Source of the DNA: Deltaproteobacteria bacterium
GTDB lineage: Bacteria; Desulfobacterota; GWC2-55-46; UBA9637; GWC2-42-11
Direction: 5' to 3'
Length of the DNA stretch: 53,573 nucleotides
Assembly (NCBI GenBank): GCA_016234925.1
Contig: JACRNI010000033.1
Location: forward strand, 1 to 53,573
The number at the start of each line of letters is the position of its first letter. Within the stretch, counting starts at the first letter, position 1. This document shows positions 24,414-35,307 of this stretch, piece after piece. A program made the position numbers and the translations under genes. The notes under the pieces were generated by a model. The model was given only the letters and a program-made list of their open reading frames with translations. It had not been told where the DNA came from and made no database searches.

Positions 24414-25409
24414 ATGCCTGAATTAAGACTAAATCTAGTAACAAGGGAATGGGTGGTTATTGCCCGTGAAAGGGCAAAAAAGCCGGAGGATTTTAAAAAG
24501 GCAGGCTATATAAAAAAAGAAATAGAGCCTTTTATTGATACATGCCCTTTCTGCCCGGGAAACGAATCAAAAACCCTTGGCGAGATATTCAGGATTTCTG
24601 CTGGGAAAGACTGGAAGGTCAGGGTTGTGCCGAATAGATTCCCTGTGTTTTCCGCCGCAGGCGAAAGGCTCAGAAAAACAGACGGGCTTAAACGAATGGT
24701 AAGCGGAGTAGGCGCGCATGAGGTTATAATAGAAACCCCGCTTCACAATATGACAACTGCGCTCCTTCCTGTTGAACAAACAACTGACATTATCAGGACA
24801 TACAAAAACCGTTTTATTTCGCTGCATCAGGATCCAAGGATTGAGCATGTTATAATCTTTAAAAATCACGGAGAAGGCGCAGGCGTATCTGTTGAACATC
24901 CGCACTCTCAGGTAATTGCAGTGCCAATAATACCTATTCAATTCAGAGACAGGTTTGAGTCTGCCGCTCATTTTTTCGATGACACGGGCGAGTGCCTTAT
25001 GTGCATGACAATAAGAAAGGAAAAAGAGGAAGGGACAAGGGTTATTCTGGACACCGAACACTTTCTGACATTCATTCCATATGCCGCCTTATCGCCGTTT
25101 CACACATGGATATTTCCAAAAAGGCATTCAGCATCATTCTCTGACATAACAGATTTAGAAATCAAAGACCTTGCCAACACATTAAAAACAATACTTTCAA
25201 AACTTTACTATGGTCTTGACAACCCTGATTTTAATTATGTATTACGCTCTCACAGGCCAAGAGACTGCGATATGGAATATTTTCACTGGTATATAAGCAT
25301 TGTTCCGAGGCTGTCAAAAGAGGCAGGCTTTGAACTGGGCAGCGGCATGTACATCAACCCCAGCATCCCTGAAGAAAATGCAAGATTTTTGAGAGAAGTG
25401 AAGGTTTAG
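24414..25409 (+). CDS. galT: Galactose-1-phosphate uridylyltransferase
   Basis: CPFCPGNE, VPNRFP, HEVIIE, FKNHG..AG.S.EHPHSQ, AGFELGSG. Confidence 0.93.
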   Translation: MPELRLNLVTREWVVIARERAKKPEDFKKAGYIKKEIEPFIDTCPFCPGNESKTLGEIFRISAGKDWKVRVVPNRFPVFSAAGERLRKTDGLKRMVSGVGAHEVIIETPLHNMTTALLPVEQTTDIIRTYKNRFISLHQDPRIEHVIIFKNHGEGAGVSVEHPHSQVIAVPIIPIQFRDRFESAAHFFDDTGECLMCMTIRKEKEEGTRVILDTEHFLTFIPYAALSPFHTWIFPKRHSASFSDITDLEIKDLANTLKTILSKLYYGLDNPDFNYVLRSHRPRDCDMEYFHWYISIVPRLSKEAGFELGSGMYINPSIPEENARFLREVKV

Positions 25410-26626
25410 TCGGTTGTCAAAAAATGCAACTGCATTTTTTTGGGTTTACACTGAAATATTCTCACCAGAAAATCATTGACCAGTTCAATCAGATTTTTCG
25501 TTGATTGTTTTATTTTCAAAACCGCGTCTTTCGCGGAATCGGGCAATTGGCCGAAAGAACCGCCGTAAAGCAATTCGCTGAAACCTTTTATAATCGCCAT
25601 CGGCGCCTTGATTTGATGCGAAGCGAATGAAAGAAATTCCGATTTGAATCTGTTTAATTCATCAAGCTGTTTATTAACGGCTTGAAACATTTTAGCCAAA
25701 ATCATTAATTCCTCGCGCTGTTGGTCTTGTTTTCTGATGCTGTGGACGAGAAAATAACTGAAAATACTGACCAAAACCAAAGTGATTCCCGCCACCGGCC
25801 GCATTGTGGCGGTATCGCTGATAAAAAGAAGCGAAGCAACCAAAAGCCACAAAGCGACAATCAAAACATTCGCGCCAATGAGTTTAATGTTGAAGGTTTT
25901 GAATTTGACAATAGAATAAGCAAGAAAACCGATAAAAATTGACATTCCGAAATAACCATATTGTTCAAGTCGCCAATTTTGAGTGAAACTCTGAGTAATA
26001 TTCCCCCATTCCAATCCTATTAAAAATAGCAATATACCGATTGTAATATATAAAATCTGTTTCCTTAAAGCAGCATCTTTTTTGACTTGTGTATATCTTA
26101 AAATTGATAAAATAATAATCCAAGAAATAAAAATGAATTCTATTATAATACTATAATAAATAATTGAACCTTCTCCCACTGCTCTATCACAATTTGTAAA
26201 ATCAAAAAATTCTAATGTGAATATGGTTGACAGCCTTATTATCATTGGTAATAATAATCCACTAATAACTAATTTCCCAAAAAAACTTAAATCTTTCTTT
26301 TCTATAAATATATATATTAAATAAAAACCAAGTGCGTAAATTATAGGATCTAATAATATAAGTACAGACCAAAAAAACATTGTATAGTACGATTTTTCAG
26401 TTGCCCATAAAATCAAATCAAAAAATAGCCATAATGAAAAAGAGAGAACAATAGAAATCAATATCTTATTGATTAAAAGTTTCCTACTTTTTAAGAAAAT
26501 CAATAAACCCAGCGCTAATGAAACTAAAATAGGTACTAAATGAGAATAATAAACTAAATGGTTAAAAACATTGCCTGAAAATATCAAAAATTTCGCCGTA
26601 TCCCAATTACAAATTGATGTGTCCAT
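25406..26626 (-). pseudogene. Multi-TM sensor histidine kinase truncated after HisKA (no HATPase domain)
   Basis: KSEFLSFASHQIKAPMAIIKG..LVNDFL, then a tail encoded by a repeat (25418-25450) matching 45387-45418. Confidence 0.8.
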
Positions 26627-26629
26627 ATT

Positions 26630-27122
26630 TTATAAATTTTTATGATATTTCTTTAAGTATACTTTTTTAAAGTAAGTTGGTATATACGGCAAATACTTTT
26701 TAAAAGTTTTTATTGGTAAAAACTGGATTGAACTAATTATTTTTCTGCAACCTCTTTGCTCACAACAACATTTCATCTTCCAAAAAACATCATGCTCAGA
26801 AATAGAATAATCAAAGGTTATTTCTTTGTCTTTCCTGATATTTTTTAATGCCACAAAAGTGATATTACCTTTAATACCGGCGTTTGGATTGCAAGAAATG
26901 GTTTATAAAACCAAAAGGGGTTCCGGCTATATCTATCCATACATTCTCGCCTATTCCAATCCAATTCGGCCCCATTTGAGATTCTTCAGCGTTTTTAGCA
27001 TCTGTTGTAAATTTTTTAATCAATCCCTTTGCAGTAAAAATTGTTTCTCCTTTTTTAATATCTTTTTCCGCAAAAATTCCTTTTCCTTGTGTTTTACTTT
27101 TTTTAATATAAATTTTTGCCAT
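26630..27122 (-). pseudogene. SET-domain protein-lysine methyltransferase with post-SET, +1 frameshift
   Basis: GKGIFA..I.KGE; FINH + extra T (26896-26898) + SCNPN; EITFDYS, CCCEQRGCRK. Confidence 0.85.
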
Positions 27123-27125
27123 AAT

Positions 27126-27809
27126 TTATTTAACAATAATCGGAGATATCATTGTTTTTGCTTTCCAATATTCACAATTTCTCGGTGGATTAACTCTTAC
27201 AATTGCTTTTTTAATATTTTTTAATTTAAATCCCGCTTCTTGCAACTTTTTTAAATGGGTTCTGCTGAAATTATTCACTTCATCGGAATAATAAGTAAAA
27301 ATTCCGCCTGATTTTAATTTTCTGTAAGCAAAAGGAAAAAAGATAAAATGAATTTTATCAAATTCTTTTTCAGTTAAAGGAAAAGTGTCAAATAAAATTC
27401 CGTCAATACTCTCATCGGGAATTTTATCTATCACTTCTTCCCAAAATCCCTCTAAAATTTCGGTTTTATATTTTGCTTTCTTTGCGAATTGTCTCGCCTT
27501 TTTAGCCACTTCTTTATTTGCCTCAATAATAATGTGTTTTTTAATGTTATGCCGTTGAATAAATCCCGCTGAAATTCCCATTCCAAAACCCAATTCTAAA
27601 ACAGTCCCGCCTTTTAAAGTGGATATTCTTGCCAACTCTTTCATATACGGAGTTTCCCAATCTTCCATAACCGCTTGATCAAAAATTTTTAATTCGTGGT
27701 CGGAATAATCCGCTTTAGCCGTTTTCCAATCAGACTTTTTATTTATCTTGTCCATTTTCTCTTTCAATCCTCTCTCCCATTTTGTTTTAAGCGCATTTTT
27801 ATTTTTCAT
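27126..27809 (-). CDS. Guanidinoacetate N-methyltransferase (GAMT/RMT2)-like methyltransferase
   Basis: VMEDWETPYM, GGTVLELGFGMGI, HIIIEAN, GFWEEV, DGILFDTFPL, PPRNCEYW..TMISP: colinear with animal GAMT motifs as recalled; start MKNKN at 27809. Confidence 0.85.
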   Translation of the reverse strand: MKNKNALKTKWERGLKEKMDKINKKSDWKTAKADYSDHELKIFDQAVMEDWETPYMKELARISTLKGGTVLELGFGMGISAGFIQRHNIKKHIIIEANKEVAKKARQFAKKAKYKTEILEGFWEEVIDKIPDESIDGILFDTFPLTEKEFDKIHFIFFPFAYRKLKSGGIFTYYSDEVNNFSRTHLKKLQEAGFKLKNIKKAIVRVNPPRNCEYWKAKTMISPIIVK

Positions 27810-27813
27810 AAAT

Positions 27814-28053
27814 TTATTTCTTTTTTTCTTTTGCGTTTTTTGCCACATATTCGTCAAATTCAATGGCTATAACTTTTTTTGCCCCTGCTCGTGCCGCAAA
27901 AAGGGCGAGGATTCCGGAGCCAGTCCCCATATCCAAAACAATATGACTCGGCTTAACCGCCCTTTTTATCGCCACTTCAAAACCCCTTGTCCTTTTTTCA
28001 TCTACAAGACATTCATTCACTAAATCTATTTCACTGAAAGCTTGTTCAGGCAT
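27814..28053 (-). pseudogene. N-terminal fragment of PRMT-like class I methyltransferase
   Basis: LVDEKRTRGFEVAI....IVLDMGTGSGILALFAARAGAKKVIAIE then ends. Confidence 0.8.
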
Positions 28054-28072
28054 AAATGTTTAACCTTATTAT

Positions 28073-28183
28073 TCCCTCTCCCCTTGTGGGAGAGGCGGGT
28101 ACCCATACAAAGTATGGGTGGGGTGAGGGGGATTAAAATAATTTTCACCCTCCCCTTAATCCCCTCCCGTCAAGGGAGGGGAG
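28073..28183. repeat. CCCTCTCCC/GGGAGAGG palindrome doublet with nested mini-element
   Basis: ccctctccccttgtgggagagg[cgggtacccatacaaagtatgggtg]gggtgagggg ... caccctccccttaatcccctcccgtcaagggagggga; relative at 20501-20552. Confidence 0.8.
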
Positions 28184-28269
28184 ATATTCTGCGCTCTCTG
28201 CTGCATATAATTCCTATGTTGTTTTTTTGGTGGGCGCAGCACATCCTGCTTACTATTCAATTTTTAAGT

Positions 28270-28299
28270 TTGACACCTTTGCAGCCTATTTGATAAGAT
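28270..28299 (+). promoter_or_regulatory. Sigma70-like promoter of vapBC
   Basis: TTGACA-N18-TAAGAT with extended TG. Confidence 0.5.
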
Positions 28300-28327
28300 T
28301 GCCATGTATCTAAACATTGGAGATGAT

Positions 28328-28567
28328 ATGATTACCGTTAAATCAAGCAAAAAAGACCTGATTGCCTTTCCCGAAAACCTCCTGAATAAACTTGGTATAA
28401 AAGAAGGGGAAAAGATTGATGTAAGGGCAAAAAAGGGCTCACTTGTTATCATTAAAGAGGCAGAAGAATTTTTTGCCCTGGAGGGTTCACTTAAAGATGT
28501 TGACATTGAAACCCCCATTAATGAACTTCGCAAGGATTGGGAAAAGTGGAAACCAGAATTATTGTAG
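28328..28567 (+). CDS. AbrB/MazE-like antitoxin
   Basis: IAFPENLLNKLGIKEGEKIDV; overlaps downstream PIN gene. Confidence 0.8.
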   Translation: MITVKSSKKDLIAFPENLLNKLGIKEGEKIDVRAKKGSLVIIKEAEEFFALEGSLKDVDIETPINELRKDWEKWKPELL

Positions 28568-28938
28568 ACACGGACATTATTATTGACTACCTCAAAAAGA
28601 GGCAGCCGGGAGCCGAACTTCTTAAAAAGGCTTATCTCAAATACAGCATCCATGTAACCTCTATAACAGTCTATGAACTTCTTTACGGCGTCCAGAAAAA
28701 CGGCAGAGTAGACCTTATAAACAGGCTTCTCAGATATGTAACTATTATCCCTTTTGATGATGCAGCAGCAAGGAAAGCCGCGGCTATCCATTATGCCCTC
28801 AAAAGCAAAGGGATGGATATTGGAATCAAAGATTCTTTTATCGCAGGTATCTGCGAGGCTCATAACATGTCGCTCCTTACTGGAAATTTAAAGCACTTTA
28901 ATCGCATACCGAGTTTAAAACTCCTTTCATTTGAATAA
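28537..28938 (+). CDS. vapC: VapC PIN-domain toxin
   Basis: IIVDTDIIIDYL, SITVYEL, DSFIAGI, LLTGNLKHF. Confidence 0.9.
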   Translation: MGKVETRIIVDTDIIIDYLKKRQPGAELLKKAYLKYSIHVTSITVYELLYGVQKNGRVDLINRLLRYVTIIPFDDAAARKAAAIHYALKSKGMDIGIKDSFIAGICEAHNMSLLTGNLKHFNRIPSLKLLSFE

Positions 28939-28998
28939 AAAGGGGTTAAAAATTTCGGGCATAAGATGTTTAACTTACCTATCTGTTTTCAATTTTTA

Positions 28999-29101
28999 GT
29001 AGGGGTTTGATTCATCAAACCCGCATATCGGGTCGGATAAATCCGACCCCTACTCCTTATATTCAATTTTCCAAGCGGGTTCAATTTTGCAAATTGAACC
29101 C
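28999..29101. repeat. REP doublet plus hairpin
   Basis: gtaggggtttgattcatcaaaccc..gggtcggataaatccgacccctac; gggttcaattttgcaaattgaaccc. Confidence 0.8.
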
Positions 29102-29168
29102 GAATAGTTTGTATCAAGGTAATCACGAAATTTAGGGAGCAGGTTGCAAAATCTTATCTTTAAATCCG

Positions 29169-30305
29169 TTATCTAAAATATTTCTTTCTTGCGATTTCTG
29201 CCACATATTCGTCAAATTTAATGACTCTGCCTCTTTTTTTCACATCTAGCCACTCTTCAAAGAGTCCATTGAGAACCTTTTTTTTATAATGGTAACGAAA
29301 TACTTCTATTGAGATTATAAATAGGACAGATAAAAAATAAATGAGATATTGGTTCAAAAAATGCCAGAAATTTGCAAAACTAAAACTGTATGGCGGTCCT
29401 ACAAACCTAGAGATCAATACTATAACAAAAACAATAGCACCAGAGTAATCATATAATATATTATTACATTTAGATTTATCCTTCACAATTTTTTTAAGTT
29501 TATCATCCCCAAATTTAGGGTATGAATCAGATTGACTTATTTGCTGCGCTAGAAAGACATTTTTATAATAGTGCCAAAAAGCCCTTTCTGGCAGTGAAAA
29601 TGGGTACACTAATAATAGCAATATCCAAACAAGTGAATTTAACATTGCATTATAAAAATAAGGTTGTGTATATGGTGTAATGCCATTATTTAATATCTCT
29701 GTTAATATCGCATTATTATTGGTTTTCCAAATACTGTGCCTTGAAAGTTCAAAAAATATGTAAAAATAAAAGAACAAAACAACAAAAAATAAAAAATTAA
29801 AGAATGCCCATGCTATTCCACTATCTTTCTCTCCTCCTGAAAAATTAGGTCTACTTTTATTAGTATCATCAGTATCTCCTACAGGTAACAATAAGTAGTG
29901 CTTTATTTCTGGCAAGACATCGCAAAGTATTTTACGAAGGTGTTGTATAGACTTCCAATATCTTATCTTGTGATTTTTAGACTTACTATATTGTCGTTGT
30001 CCCATGTGTAGTAAAAAATACACAAAAATAGATATAAATATGCCGAATCCACCGTATAGTAACCCTACAATGCTTTCAGGATGGGCTAGAACAAGTTTTA
30101 ATCCTAAAATAGTATAAGCAATATATGAAGACAATATTGTTAAAAATACTTTTATGTAAGAAGATATTTTATCATTGATAAATCTAATTTCAGCGAATAA
30201 TTGATTATATTCATTGATTAGATAGTTCGTGGGGAAAGTCCCCTTATATTCTTTATATGGACTTAATCCTTTTTTGATTCCTTTTGTAATTTTATTCTCA
30301 TCCAT
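29169..30305 (-). CDS. Hypothetical multi-pass membrane protein (very AT-rich) with PRMT-derived C-terminal residues
   Basis: 378 aa, about 6 hydrophobic segments; 29199-29218 identical to 27841-27860. Confidence 0.6.
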   Translation of the reverse strand: MDENKITKGIKKGLSPYKEYKGTFPTNYLINEYNQLFAEIRFINDKISSYIKVFLTILSSYIAYTILGLKLVLAHPESIVGLLYGGFGIFISIFVYFLLHMGQRQYSKSKNHKIRYWKSIQHLRKILCDVLPEIKHYLLLPVGDTDDTNKSRPNFSGGEKDSGIAWAFFNFLFFVVLFFYFYIFFELSRHSIWKTNNNAILTEILNNGITPYTQPYFYNAMLNSLVWILLLLVYPFSLPERAFWHYYKNVFLAQQISQSDSYPKFGDDKLKKIVKDKSKCNNILYDYSGAIVFVIVLISRFVGPPYSFSFANFWHFLNQYLIYFLSVLFIISIEVFRYHYKKKVLNGLFEEWLDVKKRGRVIKFDEYVAEIARKKYFR

Positions 30306-30313
30306 TTTAATCT

Positions 30314-31399
30314 CTAGTATTTATCCCATGATAAAAATAACCCTTTAAACCTCTCAAAAAACCAAGATAGATTAGGTTTATGCCTGCGTTTTATTTTTGA
30401 ATCAACAAATCCTTGAGCGATGAAGTCCAAGGCGATTGTGGCATCGCAAAAAACCTGATCATTATATCCGCTGCTCACCTCTTTGCCCCAAGAAATCGGC
30501 TCGGTCATAACTCCGCAGCCGGACAATCCTCCCCATTGCGGAGAATCGGTTGTAATTTGAAAGGCGTATTTAAAAGGATAAACCTTTTCGCTCCAATCTT
30601 TTAATGCCTGAGATACGGCAACGAGTTGGATGAAATCCTTTGGCACTCCTCCGCCGATGTAGCCCGCTGATTTTTCATATTTGTTTTTTCTGCCCCATTC
30701 CGCTATTTCCAGAATTTCTTCTTGGTCAAAAAACTGCTCTATAATAAGATTGCGTTTTGTTCTTGAATCTCCATTAAACGCCCTGATATACGCTTCACCG
30801 AAACCGCTGTCAACCAATGCCGGAGAAAACACCGGAACTTTGTGATGAGCCGCGTATGTCAGAATGCTCCAGATGTTTTTCTTTTTAAGCCATAGCCCAA
30901 ATTGATAAAGAAATTGCGAAGTGGAAAATACGGTCGGTTCTTTGAGTTTAGCGTTTAATTCCCTGAAAAACGCGGCAATGAGGTCTTCTAATTTTCTATA
31001 ATCGTATTCGTCCGCCGCATGGTCGTAAAACCTGTCCAGTTTTTGCTTTAATAATTTTTTATCGTCAACAAACCACGGGTCAACTTTGTAATATTTATGC
31101 CCCATTGCCTCGTAAATATCTTCTGATATATTCGCGCCAGTGCTTACTAAAACATCAATAAAGCGGTTTTTTATAAGATAACAGACAAGCGGCCAATATC
31201 CGGCGCTGGAAAGCGAGCCGCTCAATCCCAGAAAAATCATATTGCGGGGCGATAGAATCATCTCTCTCCAAACTTCATAGACTTCTCCCAAAGCCCTTGA
31301 TTGAAAAGACTGATTTTTTATTTCCAGAAGTTTTTTATGGAAATCTTTTTTGGAGATTTCTATGGGCTGACGAATGTTGTTTTTGATGTTGTTTTCCAT
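30314..31399 (-). CDS. Deoxyhypusine synthase-like (DHS / homospermidine-forming) protein
   Basis: FLGLSGSL, LVSTGAN, PALVDSGFG, IGGGVPKDF, WGGLSG....EPISWGK, DATIA; start MENNIK (ORF extension is repeat-derived). Confidence 0.9.
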   Translation of the reverse strand: MENNIKNNIRQPIEISKKDFHKKLLEIKNQSFQSRALGEVYEVWREMILSPRNMIFLGLSGSLSSAGYWPLVCYLIKNRFIDVLVSTGANISEDIYEAMGHKYYKVDPWFVDDKKLLKQKLDRFYDHAADEYDYRKLEDLIAAFFRELNAKLKEPTVFSTSQFLYQFGLWLKKKNIWSILTYAAHHKVPVFSPALVDSGFGEAYIRAFNGDSRTKRNLIIEQFFDQEEILEIAEWGRKNKYEKSAGYIGGGVPKDFIQLVAVSQALKDWSEKVYPFKYAFQITTDSPQWGGLSGCGVMTEPISWGKEVSSGYNDQVFCDATIALDFIAQGFVDSKIKRRHKPNLSWFFERFKGLFLSWDKY

Positions 31400-31422
31400 A
31401 TTGAACCTGAAAATACCTTCTT

Positions 31423-31622
31423 TTAATCCCCCTGTATCCCCCTTTAGAAAAGGGGGGAAAGTTTTGTCCCCCTCTTTCATAAAGAGGGGTTAGGGGAGAT
31501 TATTTTCATGCCCCTTTGTGAGACAAGGCTCGTGAGGGTTTGTCCCGAAAATGCCCCATATGTCCTGTAGGGGCTTGATTTATCAAGCCTGCTTATTCGG
31601 GTGTCATAAATGCCACCCCTAC
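31423..31622. repeat. Mosaic of three repeat families
   Basis: CCCCCTTT..AAAGGGGG doublet 31423-31502 (inverted relative inside queA), 50-bp element 31502-31552, REP doublet 31567-31622. Confidence 0.8.
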
Positions 31623-31653
31623 ATTATTTTAGATGTTTTGGTATTTATCCTAA

Positions 31654-31995
31654 TCATGCAAACCTTGAAAGTAAGATTATTGATGTTATTGCCATGATGA
31701 CCCCGGCAACTTCATAATGGTTTAAGGTTTCATTAAACACAAAGACGCCAAGGAGTGTTAAAAGTATGACTGTAGTAAGGGAATAAACGACTGCAATGGT
31801 AGCCAGTTTTAGATACTTCATAATATATACCCATGGAAATACAGTTAAAGAATAAACCAATAAGGCTATTAAAAACTCTTTGTTTTTAACAGGCTTATCG
31901 TGAAGACTTGCAACCTTGAGAAAATAGTCTGCGATTATGGTTGGAAAGGCTTCAATGATAATTATTGCTGCAATCGCTAGTATTGGTCTGGTCAT
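31654..31995 (-). CDS. SMR/DMT-family small membrane transporter
   Basis: 113 aa, 4 TM segments, acidic residue in TM1, LATIAVVYS..LGVFVFNE.L. Confidence 0.75.
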   Translation of the reverse strand: MTRPILAIAAIIIIEAFPTIIADYFLKVASLHDKPVKNKEFLIALLVYSLTVFPWVYIMKYLKLATIAVVYSLTTVILLTLLGVFVFNETLNHYEVAGVIMAITSIILLSRFA

Positions 31996-32035
31996 AAGAG
32001 ATAATAAGTGTCAGTGTTTAGTGTTTGCGTCAGAA

Positions 32036-32093
32036 GTAGCCGCGGACATTTATGTCCGCAATTAAAAAATCCGACCTCAAGGTCGGCAACTAC
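32036..32093. repeat. REP doublet preceded by heptamer-like repeats
   Basis: gtagccgcggacatttatgtccgc..ccgacctcaaggtcggcaactac. Confidence 0.7.
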
Positions 32094-32103
32094 AGCATTT
32101 GCA

Positions 32104-32529
32104 TCAACATACATTCTTTGTCGGATACCTTGTGCCCCGTTTAATGAAGTTTGTTTCTACATCTTTAAGTTCAAACCTTTTCTTGAAATAACTTATTATA
32201 AAGTCAATACCCATATTGTCCTTGCATGTATAAATATCTGCGCTCAAAAAACCTCTGCACGGAAATGTGTGGATGCTTATATGGCTCTCTGCAATCACAA
32301 CAAACCCGCTCCATCCACCGCAGTCTTTGATAGAGTTATCTGGCGCATAATATACATGGGGCTTGCAGAGTTTTTTCATGCCAAGTAATTCTGGTAATTC
32401 ATTCAGGCACTTAACAACCAGCCTCTTGTTGTTCAGTTTTTCAAAACTGCCTTTATATCCGTCTATGCACAGATGTTCGCCAAAGGTGGATGAAGGGGTG
32501 TATGCGGTTTTCGGCTTTTTTACTTTCAT
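32104..32529 (-). CDS. speD: Pyruvoyl-dependent S-adenosylmethionine decarboxylase family proenzyme (SpeD/SpeH-like)
   Basis: FGEHLCIDGY, GGWSGFVVIAESHISIHTFP (ES cleavage site), DIYTC, RG; substrate not certain. Confidence 0.85.
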   Translation of the reverse strand: MKVKKPKTAYTPSSTFGEHLCIDGYKGSFEKLNNKRLVVKCLNELPELLGMKKLCKPHVYYAPDNSIKDCGGWSGFVVIAESHISIHTFPCRGFLSADIYTCKDNMGIDFIISYFKKRFELKDVETNFIKRGTRYPTKNVC

Positions 32530-32662
32530 GTCAGTTGTATCAATTAGATGATTGCAAAATTTCCCAAAGATTACAAGTTTCAATAGAATTTGTCAATAAC
32601 TTTCGCCTCTTGATTTGTAGATATTTAGAACCTGCGGTTGTATGATTTGCCAAAGAGGTATT

Positions 32663-33067
32663 ATGGATATGGCTAATCGGGAAAATAAGGAGATTGGTTT
32701 AAGGATTAAAAAGGTGAGGACAGCGCTCGGTATTTCTCAGATGAAATTGGCAGATGCGGTTGGCGTATCATTTCAACAGATACAGAAATACGAGAGCGGC
32801 GCAAACAAGGTGTCAATTGAAAAACTTAAAAGGATCGCAGCGATTTTGAATGCACCCCTCTTATATTTAATTGGGGTAGAGAAGAAGCGAGGTAAAGAGG
32901 ATATTATAGCGGAAAAAGGCGCAAGATATGGTCAGATTGGGCTAGAAGACTTGTCAGCAGAGGAAATACACTTGTTGCTACAGTTTCGTTCAATTAAGAA
33001 TGATAGTGCAAAAGAAGGAATTGTTTTGTTATTAAAGGGGTTGGAGCAGAGTGAAAAGCGTAAATAA
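32663..33067 (+). CDS. XRE-family HTH regulator
   Basis: IGLRIKKVR...GISQ.KLA..VGVSFQQIQKYESG.N; divergent from speD; start uncertain. Confidence 0.85.
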   Translation: MDMANRENKEIGLRIKKVRTALGISQMKLADAVGVSFQQIQKYESGANKVSIEKLKRIAAILNAPLLYLIGVEKKRGKEDIIAEKGARYGQIGLEDLSAEEIHLLLQFRSIKNDSAKEGIVLLLKGLEQSEKRK

Positions 33068-33075
33068 ATTTAACA

Positions 33076-35307
33076 TCACCCTTCTCTCTTATATCCGCAC
33101 CCTTCATTCGGGCATTTGATTGCATTGCCTTCTTTAGAATGTTTCTCAATAAGGATTTTAAAGCCGCATTCAGGGCATTTTTCATTTATTGGCTTATCCC
33201 ACAGCGCATATTTGCATTTAGGATAGTTTGAGCAGCTGTAAAAGATTTTCCTTTTCTTTGACTGCCTTTCAACCATATTGCCGTCGCAGCCTTCTTGAGG
33301 ACATTTTACGCCAATGGACAACGGCTTTGCAGTCTTGCACTGCGGATAGTCTGAACATGCCAGAAACCTGCCAAACCTGCCTGTTTTAACAAGCATTGAC
33401 TTTCCGCAGTTAGGGCATTTTTCTCCTGTATCTTCCTGCACAATCTCAACTACACTAACCTTGCCGTTTTCATCTGTAGAAAATTCCTTTGTGTTTTTAC
33501 ATTCAGGATAAGCGGGGCACGCAAGGAATTTGCCGTTCCTGCCCCATTTTATATTCATGAACTTTCCGCACTTATCGCACTGTATATCAGTTGGAATTTC
33601 CTGCTTCTTGACATCCTTCATCTCAACCTTTGCCTTTTCTAAACTCTGTTTAAAAGGGGCGTAAAATCCCCTCATTGCGTCAAGCCATTTGAGTTTTCCA
33701 TCCTCTATCTTGTCAAGGTCTTCTTCCATATGCGCTGTAAATTCCACATTTAAAATATCAGGGAAACTCTTTACAAGAAGGTCTGTAACCATAAAACCAA
33801 GTTCAGTCGGGATAAACTGGTTTTTTTCTTTTACAGCATATTCCCTGTCCTGAATAGTTGAAATGATCGCGGCATAGGTCGACGGTCTGCCAATGCCGTT
33901 TTCCTCAAGTTCCTTTACAAGCGTGGCCTCTGTAAACCTTGGCTGAGGCTGTGTAAAGTGCTGCTTTGGCAAAAGGTTTAAGAGTTTCAAAACATCTCCT
34001 TTTGCAAGAGAAGGAAGCGCTGCCTCTTCTTCTTCTTCATCCCTTGCCTCTGCATATACTGCTGTGAAACCTGCAAATTTAACAATAGAGCCGTTTGCCT
34101 GAAACAGATATTTTCCAGCATCTATCAAAACCGCTGTCTGGTCAAGGATTTGAGGCATCATCTGGCTTGCAACAAATCTATTCCAGATGAGTTGATAAAG
34201 CGCGAAATGGTCTTTTGAAAGGAATTTTTTTACTGCCTCAGGCGGATGTTGAAAATATGTGGGTCTTATTGCCTCGTGCGCATCTTGAGCGCCTTTTTTG
34301 CTTTGATAGGCATTTGGTTTTGCAGGCAGATATGCGCTGCTGAATCTTTCTTGAATATATGCCCTTGCATCCCTGACTGCATCAGATGAGACCCTTGTTG
34401 AATCTGTTCTCATATATGTTATAAGCCCGACAGAGCCTTTTTCGCCGAGTGGGATGCCTTCATACAACTGCTGCGCAATCATCATTGTCTTTTTTGCTGT
34501 AAAACCCAATTTCCTTGCCGCATCCTGCTGGAGTTTGCTTGTTATAAAAGGCGGCAAAGGATTTCTCTTTCTTTCTTTTTTTTCAACATCCCTTACTGCA
34601 AAATCTTTTCCCTCAACCTCTTTTAATATTTTATTTGCATCCTGCTCATTTTTTATCTCTAATTTCTTGTCATCTTTTTTGGTTAACTTTGCCTTAAAAC
34701 CTGTGCCTGTCTTTTCAAGTTCCGCTGTTATGCTCCAGTATTCCTGCGGCACAAATGCCTTGATTTCCCTTTCCCTCTCGCATATAAGTCTTACAGCAAC
34801 AGACTGAACCCTGCCGGCGCTTAAGCCATATCTCACCTTTTTCCAAAGGATCGGGCTTATCTCGTAGCCGACCAATCTATCAAGGATGCGTCTTGCCTGC
34901 TGCGCCTCAAACTTGCTCCTGTCAAGCCTTGAGGGCGATTTTATTGCCTCAATAACGCCCTTTTCAGTTATTTCGTTAAATAGAACCCGATATATATTAT
35001 CTTTTTTTCCGTCGACCTCTTCTGCAATATGCCATGCAATCGCCTCGCCCTCCCTGTCAGGGTCAGGCGCAAGATATATTTTATCAGCAGACTTGGCAGC
35101 CTTTTTAAGTTCAGCAATCACCTTTGTCTTGCCCTTGATTGTTTCATAATGCGGGGCAAAATCATTTTCTACATCAACGCCGAGTTTGCTCTTTGGCAAA
35201 TCCTTTACATGGCCTATAGACGCCTTGACAGTAAAATCCTTTCCCAGAAACTTATTTATTGTCTTTGCCTTTGCAGGCGATTCAACTATTACCAATGATT
35301 TTGGCAT
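33076..35307 (-). CDS. topA: DNA topoisomerase I
   Basis: IVESPAKAKTI, DPDREGE, SAGRVQS, ITYMRTDS, C-terminal Zn ribbons. Confidence 0.98.
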   Translation of the reverse strand: MPKSLVIVESPAKAKTINKFLGKDFTVKASIGHVKDLPKSKLGVDVENDFAPHYETIKGKTKVIAELKKAAKSADKIYLAPDPDREGEAIAWHIAEEVDGKKDNIYRVLFNEITEKGVIEAIKSPSRLDRSKFEAQQARRILDRLVGYEISPILWKKVRYGLSAGRVQSVAVRLICEREREIKAFVPQEYWSITAELEKTGTGFKAKLTKKDDKKLEIKNEQDANKILKEVEGKDFAVRDVEKKERKRNPLPPFITSKLQQDAARKLGFTAKKTMMIAQQLYEGIPLGEKGSVGLITYMRTDSTRVSSDAVRDARAYIQERFSSAYLPAKPNAYQSKKGAQDAHEAIRPTYFQHPPEAVKKFLSKDHFALYQLIWNRFVASQMMPQILDQTAVLIDAGKYLFQANGSIVKFAGFTAVYAEARDEEEEEAALPSLAKGDVLKLLNLLPKQHFTQPQPRFTEATLVKELEENGIGRPSTYAAIISTIQDREYAVKEKNQFIPTELGFMVTDLLVKSFPDILNVEFTAHMEEDLDKIEDGKLKWLDAMRGFYAPFKQSLEKAKVEMKDVKKQEIPTDIQCDKCGKFMNIKWGRNGKFLACPAYPECKNTKEFSTDENGKVSVVEIVQEDTGEKCPNCGKSMLVKTGRFGRFLACSDYPQCKTAKPLSIGVKCPQEGCDGNMVERQSKKRKIFYSCSNYPKCKYALWDKPINEKCPECGFKILIEKHSKEGNAIKCPNEGCGYKREG

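Follow-up and report, generated by a model that had tools for sequence, protein, structure and literature searches.

Gene content and layout of the island

The DNA analysed here, called the window throughout, is positions 1-53,573 of contig JACRNI010000033.1 of assembly GCA_016234925.1, from the 96%-complete genome of a bacterium outside the Candidate Phyla Radiation (CPR). Between positions 25406 and 32583 its minus strand carries nine co-oriented genes, with an XRE-family helix-turn-helix regulator (32642-33067, plus strand; Pfam HTH_3, E 5.8e-14) divergent from them. In reading order the row encodes a SpeD-like decarboxylase, a small SMR/DMT-like transporter, an enzyme related to deoxyhypusine synthase (DHS), a 378-aa membrane protein, a stub of a protein arginine methyltransferase (PRMT)-like enzyme, a homologue of guanidinoacetate N-methyltransferase (GAMT), a SET-domain methyltransferase and a HisKA-containing membrane protein. 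An earlier note, made from the bare sequence, had seen here an undescribed pathway for an exported N-methylated guanidino-polyamine; open reading frame (ORF) and profile searches find the genes that it named where it placed them and in the same orientation, with the XRE gene divergent. From its sequence, this is probably a real island, horizontally acquired and partly decayed, with enzymes from the Patescibacteria/archaeal gene pool now residing in a non-CPR groundwater bacterium.

The GAMT-like methyltransferase

The gene at 27126-27809 (minus strand) is intact, as had been proposed, and encodes a 227-aa protein of the GAMT family (phmmer E 9e-43 against rat and human GAMT). It is 39-40% identical to the solved GAMT structures 1xcj, 3orh and 1khh, and Foldseek places its AlphaFold model (pLDDT 89.9) on 3orh with a TM score of 0.85 at 39% identity. 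The next-best structural matches are spermidine synthases, with TM scores of about 0.6 and 12-18% identity, and a weak NCBIfam match to a polyamine aminopropyltransferase is also found (E 0.006). Judged by sequence and predicted fold, the protein is a true homologue of animal GAMT. Its homologues number 564 at E ≤ 1e-10, the named ones being mostly Patescibacterial.

Glu52 (in the motif MEDWE) and Asp141 (in FDT) align with E45 and D134 of the rat enzyme, which we take to be the acidic pair that binds the guanidino group, and both are invariant in 32 homologues. A 13-residue gap lies opposite rat residues 168-180, a loop that presumably contacts the carboxylate of guanidinoacetate through its backbone (L170/T171). 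With the Glu/Asp pair kept and the carboxylate loop deleted, a guanidino substrate other than guanidinoacetate would fit. The guanidino substrate of the earlier note agrees with these features, in so far as the roles assumed for them hold.

The SpeD-like decarboxylase

The SpeD-like gene (32104-32583, minus strand, with a probable ATG start at 32529) encodes a putative pyruvoyl decarboxylase of the class 1b S-adenosylmethionine decarboxylase (AdoMetDC) family (PF02675, E 8.5e-23) and is the only AdoMet_dc gene of the genome. It scores 74.6 bits against TIGR03330, just under the cut-off of 75.65, and its ES/H/C processing residues (ESH..H..C) align with those of the Thermotoga maritima AdoMetDC; S63, H68 and C83 are named in the literature as the SpeD processing Ser and the catalytic His and Cys (PMC10407285). 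The absence of a spermidine synthase, on which the earlier note had remarked, is borne out, SpeE (PF01564) giving no matches in the 96%-complete genome. SpeD without SpeE in a genome is the published criterion for an "anomalous" SpeD that decarboxylates arginine or ornithine; SpeD homologues without SpeE have been demonstrated to be such decarboxylases, and SpeDA-SpeY clusters have been published (PMC10407285). The SpeD-like protein is a candidate arginine decarboxylase, an ornithine decarboxylase being the other possibility; Gln, Thr, Phe and Tyr positions diagnostic of ornithine decarboxylases, and the loss of an AdoMetDC Pro, have been published as distinguishing marks (PMC10407285). It is 56-60% identical to the SpeD-like proteins of three of the GAMT-like loci described below (L123, L125 and L128). 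Phage SpeD homologues were tried as an aid to classification; at 39% identity or less they were of no help in telling arginine from ornithine decarboxylases.

Recurrence of the gene pairings in other loci

A scan of metagenome contigs gave 215 stretches encoding GAMT-like proteins, of which the best 80 were kept (L numbers); these collapse into 72 groups at 95% GAMT identity. The island proteins were compared with the 80 loci by tblastn. SpeD-like genes were found in 16 of the 80 loci, 14 of them full-length; kinase membrane-domain homologues stand beside the GAMT-like gene in 18, with two further loci matching by HisKA only. PurD-like ATP-grasp genes occur in six loci, PRMT-like and SET genes in four each, and an agmatinase homologue (L130), PdaD (L137) and a SpeY of the type encoded on contig C173 of the host genome in one each. 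Counted by group, a decarboxylase is present within 6 kb in 26 of the 72, namely 14 SpeD-like, 11 of the pyridoxal phosphate (PLP)-dependent ornithine/arginine type and one PdaD, and a histidine kinase in 27 (the kinases were grouped by single-linkage ORF clustering, and some generic kinases may be included). Restricting the count to the 25 groups whose contigs extend 1.5 kb or more to each side leaves 13 with a decarboxylase, 15 with a kinase and 18 with either of the two.

Three layouts can be distinguished. The first runs regulator, GAMT, SpeD, 240-aa protein, kinase; the second EamA transporter, PLP decarboxylase, GAMT, 271-aa membrane protein, 94-aa protein; and the third, the one that the window matches, SpeD, amide-forming enzyme, PRMT-like, GAMT, kinase. 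The closest example of the third is L123, where SpeD, LPG_synthase_C, PRMT-like, GAMT-like and kinase genes follow one another in the order of the window. The right-hand half of the island (PRMT-like, GAMT-like, SET and kinase), together with the SpeD-like gene, is a copy of this recurrent, undescribed CPR neighbourhood, here joined to the DHS-like and SMR-like genes.

Some of the pairings are fusions: GAMT with AdoMet_dc (L190, 5171-6340, 389 aa), SET with GAMT (L150, 4119-5423, 434 aa) and GAMT with a PLP ornithine/arginine decarboxylase (P0243, 604 aa). GAMT-like domains are also embedded in the condensation-adenylation modules of non-ribosomal peptide synthetases (P0244-P0249), and SET is beside or fused to the GAMT-like domain in L120, L121, L145 and L150. 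A lack of co-occurrence elsewhere, which the earlier note named as counting against its pathway, was not what was found; again and again the GAMT-like gene adjoins or is joined in one protein with a decarboxylase of the SpeD-like or PLP type, and stands beside the same membrane kinase, and since the same pairings recur, the arrangement is not due to chance. As decarboxylases of three unrelated folds occupy one and the same slot, the link between the genes would be a decarboxylated basic amino acid rather than decarboxylated S-adenosylmethionine (dcSAM), which argues against both a hidden aminopropyltransferase and protein substrates.

LPG_synthase_C lies beside the GAMT-like gene in L123, L130, L145 and L150, and the 240-aa protein in L154, L155, L157, L160, L179, L190 and L194. 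Three amide- or acyl-forming candidates alternate beside the CPR GAMT-like genes, which suggests that the methylated amine is further conjugated. The window has none of the accessory genes of the CPR loci (LPG_synthase_C, PurD-like ATP-grasp, the 240-aa, 271-aa and 94-aa proteins, and a response regulator).

The DHS-like enzyme

The DHS-like gene (30314-31399, minus strand) matches PF01916 at E 8.4e-69. It reaches no NCBIfam equivalog cut-off, the best match, NF002006, scoring 346 bits against a cut-off of 434, and NF002699 180 against 500. Lys333, in the motif EPISWGK, is invariant in 26 sequences and is, we assume, the catalytic lysine of the family. The 27 N-terminal codons of the long ORF are false, being supplied by the repeat element at 31401-31687, and the database gene call for the protein (P0001, 361 aa) begins at residue 28.

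Its closest relatives are unnamed metagenome proteins (83-85% identity), followed by proteins of Patescibacteria, including Kerfeldbacteria (56-66%, compared with 39% or less for the DHS relatives in 40 kin genomes), and archaeal deoxyhypusine synthases (46-51%). A quick maximum-likelihood tree of 47 rows, to be read with caution for long-branch joins at the outgroup, puts the DHS-like protein into a 12-row CPR clade (SH-aLRT 100) that branches from within archaeal DHS. The archaeal-like group has also given rise to a second DHS type, which the host class carries within PdaD-agmatinase clusters, so that an archaeal-like sequence is compatible with a SpeY role. In the window, the SpeD-like gene is two genes upstream of the DHS-like gene; the ureohydrolase of the genome lies outside the island, on contig C173. 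A SpeY-like role is proposed for the DHS-like enzyme. In Desulfurococcales-type archaea (L055, L098, L095, L085, L092, L065, L079 and L043) a SpeD homologue lies directly downstream of deoxyhypusine synthase, and the SpeD-DHS adjacency is thus also present in the presumed donor domain.

The genome-contig scan found 465 relatives of the DHS-like gene, of which the best 80 were kept; five are close bacterial loci (L034-L038). SET stands beside the DHS clade in two of these five: L037 (6464-12026) has SET, a PurD-like ATP-grasp, a PLP decarboxylase, DHS and an agmatinase homologue, and L038 (8526-10470) has two SET genes and DHS before the contig ends. The PurD-like ATP-grasp of L037 is common to the GAMT-like loci L125, L127, L128, L132, L133 and L187. 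In L034-L036, no polyamine genes were found near DHS. L035, from a record titled uncultured Gammaproteobacteria (GC 59%), has large genes of about 1390, 600 and 550 aa in common with the Kerfeldbacteria locus L036, and its taxonomic label may be wrong.

Between 30689 and 31064 a second contig population is seen in run X1, a metagenome read set whose contigs are described below, at a depth of about 18-20 out of 44-52 and with many substitutions across the DHS-like gene; it points to a related strain or species with a diverged DHS-like copy in the same sample.

The SMR-like transporter, the SET gene and their cassette

The transporter gene (31654-31995, minus strand) encodes a small membrane protein of 113 aa that is better called SMR/DMT-like than SMR, as the earlier note had it; the protein falls below every curated cut-off (EamA E 1e-5, 26.3 bits against 28.2; weak EbrA, QacJ, MdtJ and ArnF matches far below theirs). 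The genome has three SMR-like paralogues, 56-61% identical and each associated with a SET gene. The cassettes lie at C103:5611-7472, at C86:10046-11197 and, in the window, at 31654-31995 plus 26630-27122, and a further one was found at 393-2878 of L118 (G051:C5); that makes three cassettes in this genome and one in 95 further genomes of the class. The SMR-like gene itself is present in two of 96 genomes of the class and two of 301 of the phylum. Asp23, in a GDYFLK motif, is invariant in the four copies, and Glu15 is found in the window copy only.

The general form of the cassette is a four-helix SMR/DMT-like transporter followed by, and sometimes overlapping, one or two SET genes of about 170 aa, usually with a divergent XRE gene. 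C103 has two SET genes, that of C86 is truncated and that of the window is 4.5 kb from the SMR-like gene; the XRE gene is divergent on C103 and C86, and G051 has an overlapping SMR-SET pair. The XRE regulator of the window is unrelated to those of the other two cassettes, finding only itself by tblastn in the genome. A fifth SMR-like gene, in G234, is without a SET neighbour over the 3.3 kb examined. The genome has no SET genes outside these cassettes; of the four, two are damaged.

One of the damaged copies is that of the window (26630-27122, minus strand), where an extra T in a run at about 26896-26898 gives a +1 frameshift within the NHSCxPN motif and splits the gene into ORFs of 83 and 74 aa. 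Both parts have Pfam SET matches, the N part with 19.6 bits (below the cut-off of 22.4) and the C part with 23.5 bits (above it). The independent assembly of run X1 lists no indel at this site, at a depth of 30. The SET gene of the earlier note is present, then, and is not intact. The intact SET protein of C103 matches the structure of the methyltransferase BurB (9l4t) at E 1.2e-5 and KMT2-type SET domains better, at E 5e-11.

The PRMT-like stub and the membrane kinase

Where PRMT-like fragments had been reported, there is a single 79-aa piece with no second (27814-28053, minus strand; PrmA E 1.6e-10). It has SAM motif I only and ends before the double-E loop, being 53-62% identical to residues 2-72 of its 286-aa full-length counterparts beside GAMT in L131 and L145; no C-terminal remnant was found in the window. 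The full-length L131 protein matches PRMT6, CARM1 and PRMT1 at E 5e-18, including SAM motif I and the double-E loop. The supposed sensor kinase is a multi-pass membrane protein (25406-26626, minus strand; HisKA E 2.3e-10) that is cut after HisKA; it aligns at 36.8% identity with residues 1-412 of the 589-aa kinase of L121 (HisKA_7TM, HisKA and HATPase_c), and a profile search found no HATPase_c in it. As predicted from these sequences, the PRMT-like stub is dead, as are the SET gene and the kinase in this genome. The "partly decaying" of the earlier note was correct, and the decay goes beyond what it claimed, with these three genes broken and a VapBC pair and repeats interrupting the row.

Origin of the island

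The GAMT-like gene occurs in one of 301 sampled genomes of the host's phylum, which is the host itself, and the GC content is 27-32% in the island and about 39-44% in its flanks. For the DHS-like and the GAMT-like protein alike, the nearest relatives are Patescibacterial, so that the unrelated origins that would also have spoken against the pathway of the earlier note are not seen in these two; its description of the enzymes as eukaryote-like gives way to a CPR and archaeal gene pool. Contigs of run X1 cover all 30 bins, at an even depth of 30-57 across the island and flanks, and bridge GalT into the kinase gene (25098-25446) and SpeD-XRE into TopA (32384-33366). This run may be the source sample of the genome and is thus a check on the assembly, not an independent occurrence. 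The pair FabI-GalT is kept in genomes of the same taxonomic order; no TopA-side gene follows GalT in the four regions compared, which thus set no limits to the insertion.

A proposed pathway and its alternatives

The reading that we put forward, at about even confidence and from sequence comparisons, is that of a transferred and decayed CPR-type island whose products would make agmatine, couple it in the manner of SpeY and/or methylate its guanidino group, and export the result. The SpeD-like pyruvoyl enzyme would decarboxylate arginine to agmatine; the DHS-like enzyme would couple agmatine, SpeY-fashion, to N1,N9-bis(guanidino)homospermidine; the GAMT-like enzyme would methylate a guanidino nitrogen, on agmatine or on the coupling product but not on guanidinoacetate; and the small SMR-like transporter would export the cation. 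In the intact CPR versions the PRMT-like and SET enzymes may add further N-methyl groups, and the kinase may respond to the product or to a cue related to it. What survives in this genome would be, at most, a shortened pathway of decarboxylase, DHS-like enzyme, GAMT-like enzyme and transporter.

Several observations weigh against this proposal. With three of the nine genes broken and VapBC and repeats splitting the row, joint expression is doubtful. In sequence the DHS-like protein stands nearer to the true DHS of archaea (46-51%) than to the SpeY of bacteria in either of its types, the island has no ureohydrolase, and the DHS-like gene may be redundant, since contig C173 already carries a complete PdaD-agmatinase-SpeY operon. 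The SMR-like and 378-aa proteins are absent from all 80 GAMT-like loci (0 of 72 groups). The full speD-DHS-GAMT-SET set, for which the earlier note had recommended a search, was found in none of the 72 GAMT-like loci and none of the five close DHS-like loci; DHS is near the GAMT-like gene in one of the 72, where it is of the C173 SpeY type. Of the 80 loci, many are short contigs, and those that are related do not count as separate observations. For the exported N-methylated guanidino-polyamine as first suggested, the recurrence of the gene pairings is favourable and the absence of the SMR-like gene from those loci is not.

A bolder version, unlikely as it stands, would have the CPR family making an exhaustively N-methylated agmatine-type cation, with SET acting on the lysine-like primary amine, the GAMT-like enzyme on the inner guanidino nitrogen and the PRMT-like enzyme on the outer; the resulting "onium" would be exported by SMR/DMT proteins, sensed by the kinase, and serve ultra-small bacteria as an antimicrobial or as a signal of their own making. 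The window would then represent a transfer from a CPR episymbiont to its probable host, followed by decay.

The main alternative, less likely but plausible, is that the row is a juxtaposition of unrelated modules in one recombination hotspot, with no joint product: a SpeDA-SpeY homospermidine pair, a dead remnant of the CPR GAMT-kinase cassette, an SMR-SET cassette and VapBC. The separate SMR-SET cassettes on C103, C86 and G051 fit this explanation, as do the single co-occurrence of DHS with a GAMT-like gene in 72 loci, with the other DHS type, the VapBC pair, three repeats and 58-nt scar in mid-island, and the three broken genes. It accounts less well for the convergence of all the enzymes on arginine- or agmatine-type substrates, for SET genes both beside the DHS clade (two of five loci) and beside or fused to GAMT-like domains (L120, L121, L145, L150), for the PurD-like ATP-grasp that links L037 with GAMT-like loci, and for the common orientation of the genes.

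The earlier note had offered, as its own alternative, a kit for modifying arginine and lysine in proteins. In such a kit the DHS-like enzyme would aminobutylate a lysine of elongation factor P (EF-P) or of another protein, and the SET, PRMT-like and GAMT-like enzymes would methylate protein lysine or arginine. SET and PRMT families are classically protein methyltransferases and the tree position of the DHS-like protein is within archaeal true DHS, but we regard this as improbable, the decarboxylase fusions in particular disfavouring it: the GAMT-like domain is fused to decarboxylases of two folds and embedded in peptide synthetase modules, an EF-P gene was found in none of 85 DHS-like or GAMT-like loci, and the DHS of L037 is flanked by a decarboxylase and an agmatinase homologue. 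The EF-P of the host itself (C172:27699-28259) has PGNWRG at its loop tip, without a lysine, in a by-eye comparison with the motif KPGKGQ that we take to carry Lys34 in the Escherichia coli protein, and is probably, from its sequence, not lysine-modified. The SET enzyme BurB, moreover, methylates a free amino acid (PMC12542666).

That the SpeD-like protein is a genuine AdoMetDC, and that the GAMT-like protein takes the place of SpeE by transferring aminopropyl or alkyl groups from dcSAM in a non-canonical way, seems very improbable. Such a scheme would explain the lack of SpeE in the genome, and the spermidine synthases among the next-best structural matches (TM about 0.6) and the weak aminopropyltransferase match (E 0.006) are in its favour; the SpeD slot, however, is also taken, by replacement or fusion, by decarboxylases of the PLP and PdaD types, for which no formation of dcSAM is known, and the identity is 12-18% to spermidine synthases against 39-40% to GAMT. 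Least credible of all is an assembly or binning chimera in which CPR DNA was misjoined into the host contig: the Patescibacterial relatives of several genes, the low GC of the island and the high-copy repeats inside it, which could mislead an assembler, are answered by the independent X1 contigs that bridge both junctions, the even depth over island and flanks, and the paralogous SMR-SET cassettes on two other contigs.

Relationship to known systems

Returning to the proposed agmatine pathway, the published SpeDA-SpeY(-SpeB) clusters resemble the window in having a SpeD homologue, no SpeE and a DHS homologue downstream (Li et al. 2023, PMC10407285; Li et al. 2026, PMC13625781); their logic leads from arginine through agmatine to N1,N9-bis(guanidino)homospermidine, SpeY making the bis-guanidino product from agmatine (PMC13625781). 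The ureohydrolase of the window's genome is encoded elsewhere, as has been described for the SpeDA-SpeY of Gimesia maris (PMC10407285). The window differs from these clusters in that its DHS-like protein is of a CPR clade that lies nearer to archaeal DHS, a transporter gene stands between the two enzymes, there is no ureohydrolase in the cluster, and the row goes on with three N-methyltransferase genes and a kinase. The main text of PMC13625781 does not contain the word element "methyl".

Vertebrate GAMT (EC 2.1.1.2) and the GAMT-like protein of the window have the same fold and both keep the Glu/Asp pair, whereas the 13-residue loop that we take to contact the carboxylate is missing in the window, and the partner enzyme is a decarboxylase instead of an amidinotransferase. 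With the CPR GAMT-decarboxylase-kinase cassette the window has in common the GAMT branch and the decarboxylase and kinase partners, and the same fusions turn up among the related loci; the window copy is truncated and in a non-CPR host, has neither a response regulator nor a gene for acyl or amide formation, and is joined to DHS-like, SMR-like and SET genes. BurB of Burkholderia is a SET-domain methionine S-methyltransferase that methylates a small free molecule to an onium compound (PMC12542666; PDB 9l4t); the window SET is likewise a small bacterial SET, but SET proteins here match the KMT2 type better and the window copy is frameshifted. The SMR-like protein resembles the SMR exporters (EmrE/Qac, Gdx/SugE, MdtJI) as a small membrane protein of about 110 aa with weak profile similarity, and differs from them in that the membrane-embedded Glu of the first transmembrane helix is not kept among the four paralogues, an Asp being invariant instead. 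No guanidine riboswitch accompanies it: an Rfam search at a permissive threshold over 24.5-34 kb gave three chance-level matches.

A search of the literature on guanidinoacetate N-methyltransferase in Patescibacteria and on methylagmatine found no GAMT-family enzyme coupled to decarboxylases, SET and PRMT-like enzymes, though supplements of the SpeDA-SpeY papers may list overlapping SpeD/SpeY homologues. Three things are new: the cassette occurs in a non-CPR host, it has been joined there to a DHS-like gene of the CPR clade and to an SMR-SET cassette, and it has decayed. If the proposal is right, the coupling of a GAMT-family enzyme to decarboxylases would open a new line of arginine and polyamine chemistry, known agmatine-dependent SpeDA/SpeY pathways being without a methylation step in the accounts cited above, and the bacterial homologues of the creatine enzyme would have a role. 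Where SET and PRMT-type enzymes stand beside, or are fused to, enzymes that act on small molecules, it seems that metabolites can be substrates of these "protein" methyltransferases. The island is a clear example of CPR-type genes in a non-CPR genome, which is of interest for the exchange of genes between ultra-small bacteria and the organisms around them, and perhaps for their physical association. For experiments, the decayed copy of the window is less suitable than the intact CPR clusters.

Interrupting elements and the 378-aa membrane protein

A VapBC toxin-antitoxin pair (28304-28938, plus strand; VapB 28304-28567, VapC 28537-28938) interrupts the operon; VapC matches NF047863 at E 1.3e-21, and VapB has a weak AbrB match (E 0.0017). 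It is flanked by repeat bins at 27957-28243 (depth 17518) and 28818-29104 (depth 766), and the third repeat element, at 31401-31687 between the SMR-like and DHS-like genes, has a contig depth of 12102, compared with about 45 in neighbouring bins, and many loose contig ends. All three are of a short GC-rich hairpin type and are widespread, being common to many organisms of the groundwater metagenome. Neither they nor VapBC figured in the earlier reading of the island.

The 378-aa membrane protein (29169-30305, minus strand) is an orphan with no Pfam or NCBIfam match and no homologue in the 85 related loci; the ESM Atlas gave no family, the sole lead being a weak one (0.84) to the RipA/8xMP family. 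The last 19 or so codons of its gene duplicate the end of the PRMT-like stub; the two are linked by the 58-nt direct repeat D1 (copy A 27823-27880, copy B 29181-29238; 81% identical with a 20-nt exact core, by repeat search and pairwise alignment). D1 brackets VapBC and the PRMT-like stub and is a recombination scar; the order of the pieces around it is inconsistent with a simple insertion and target duplication.

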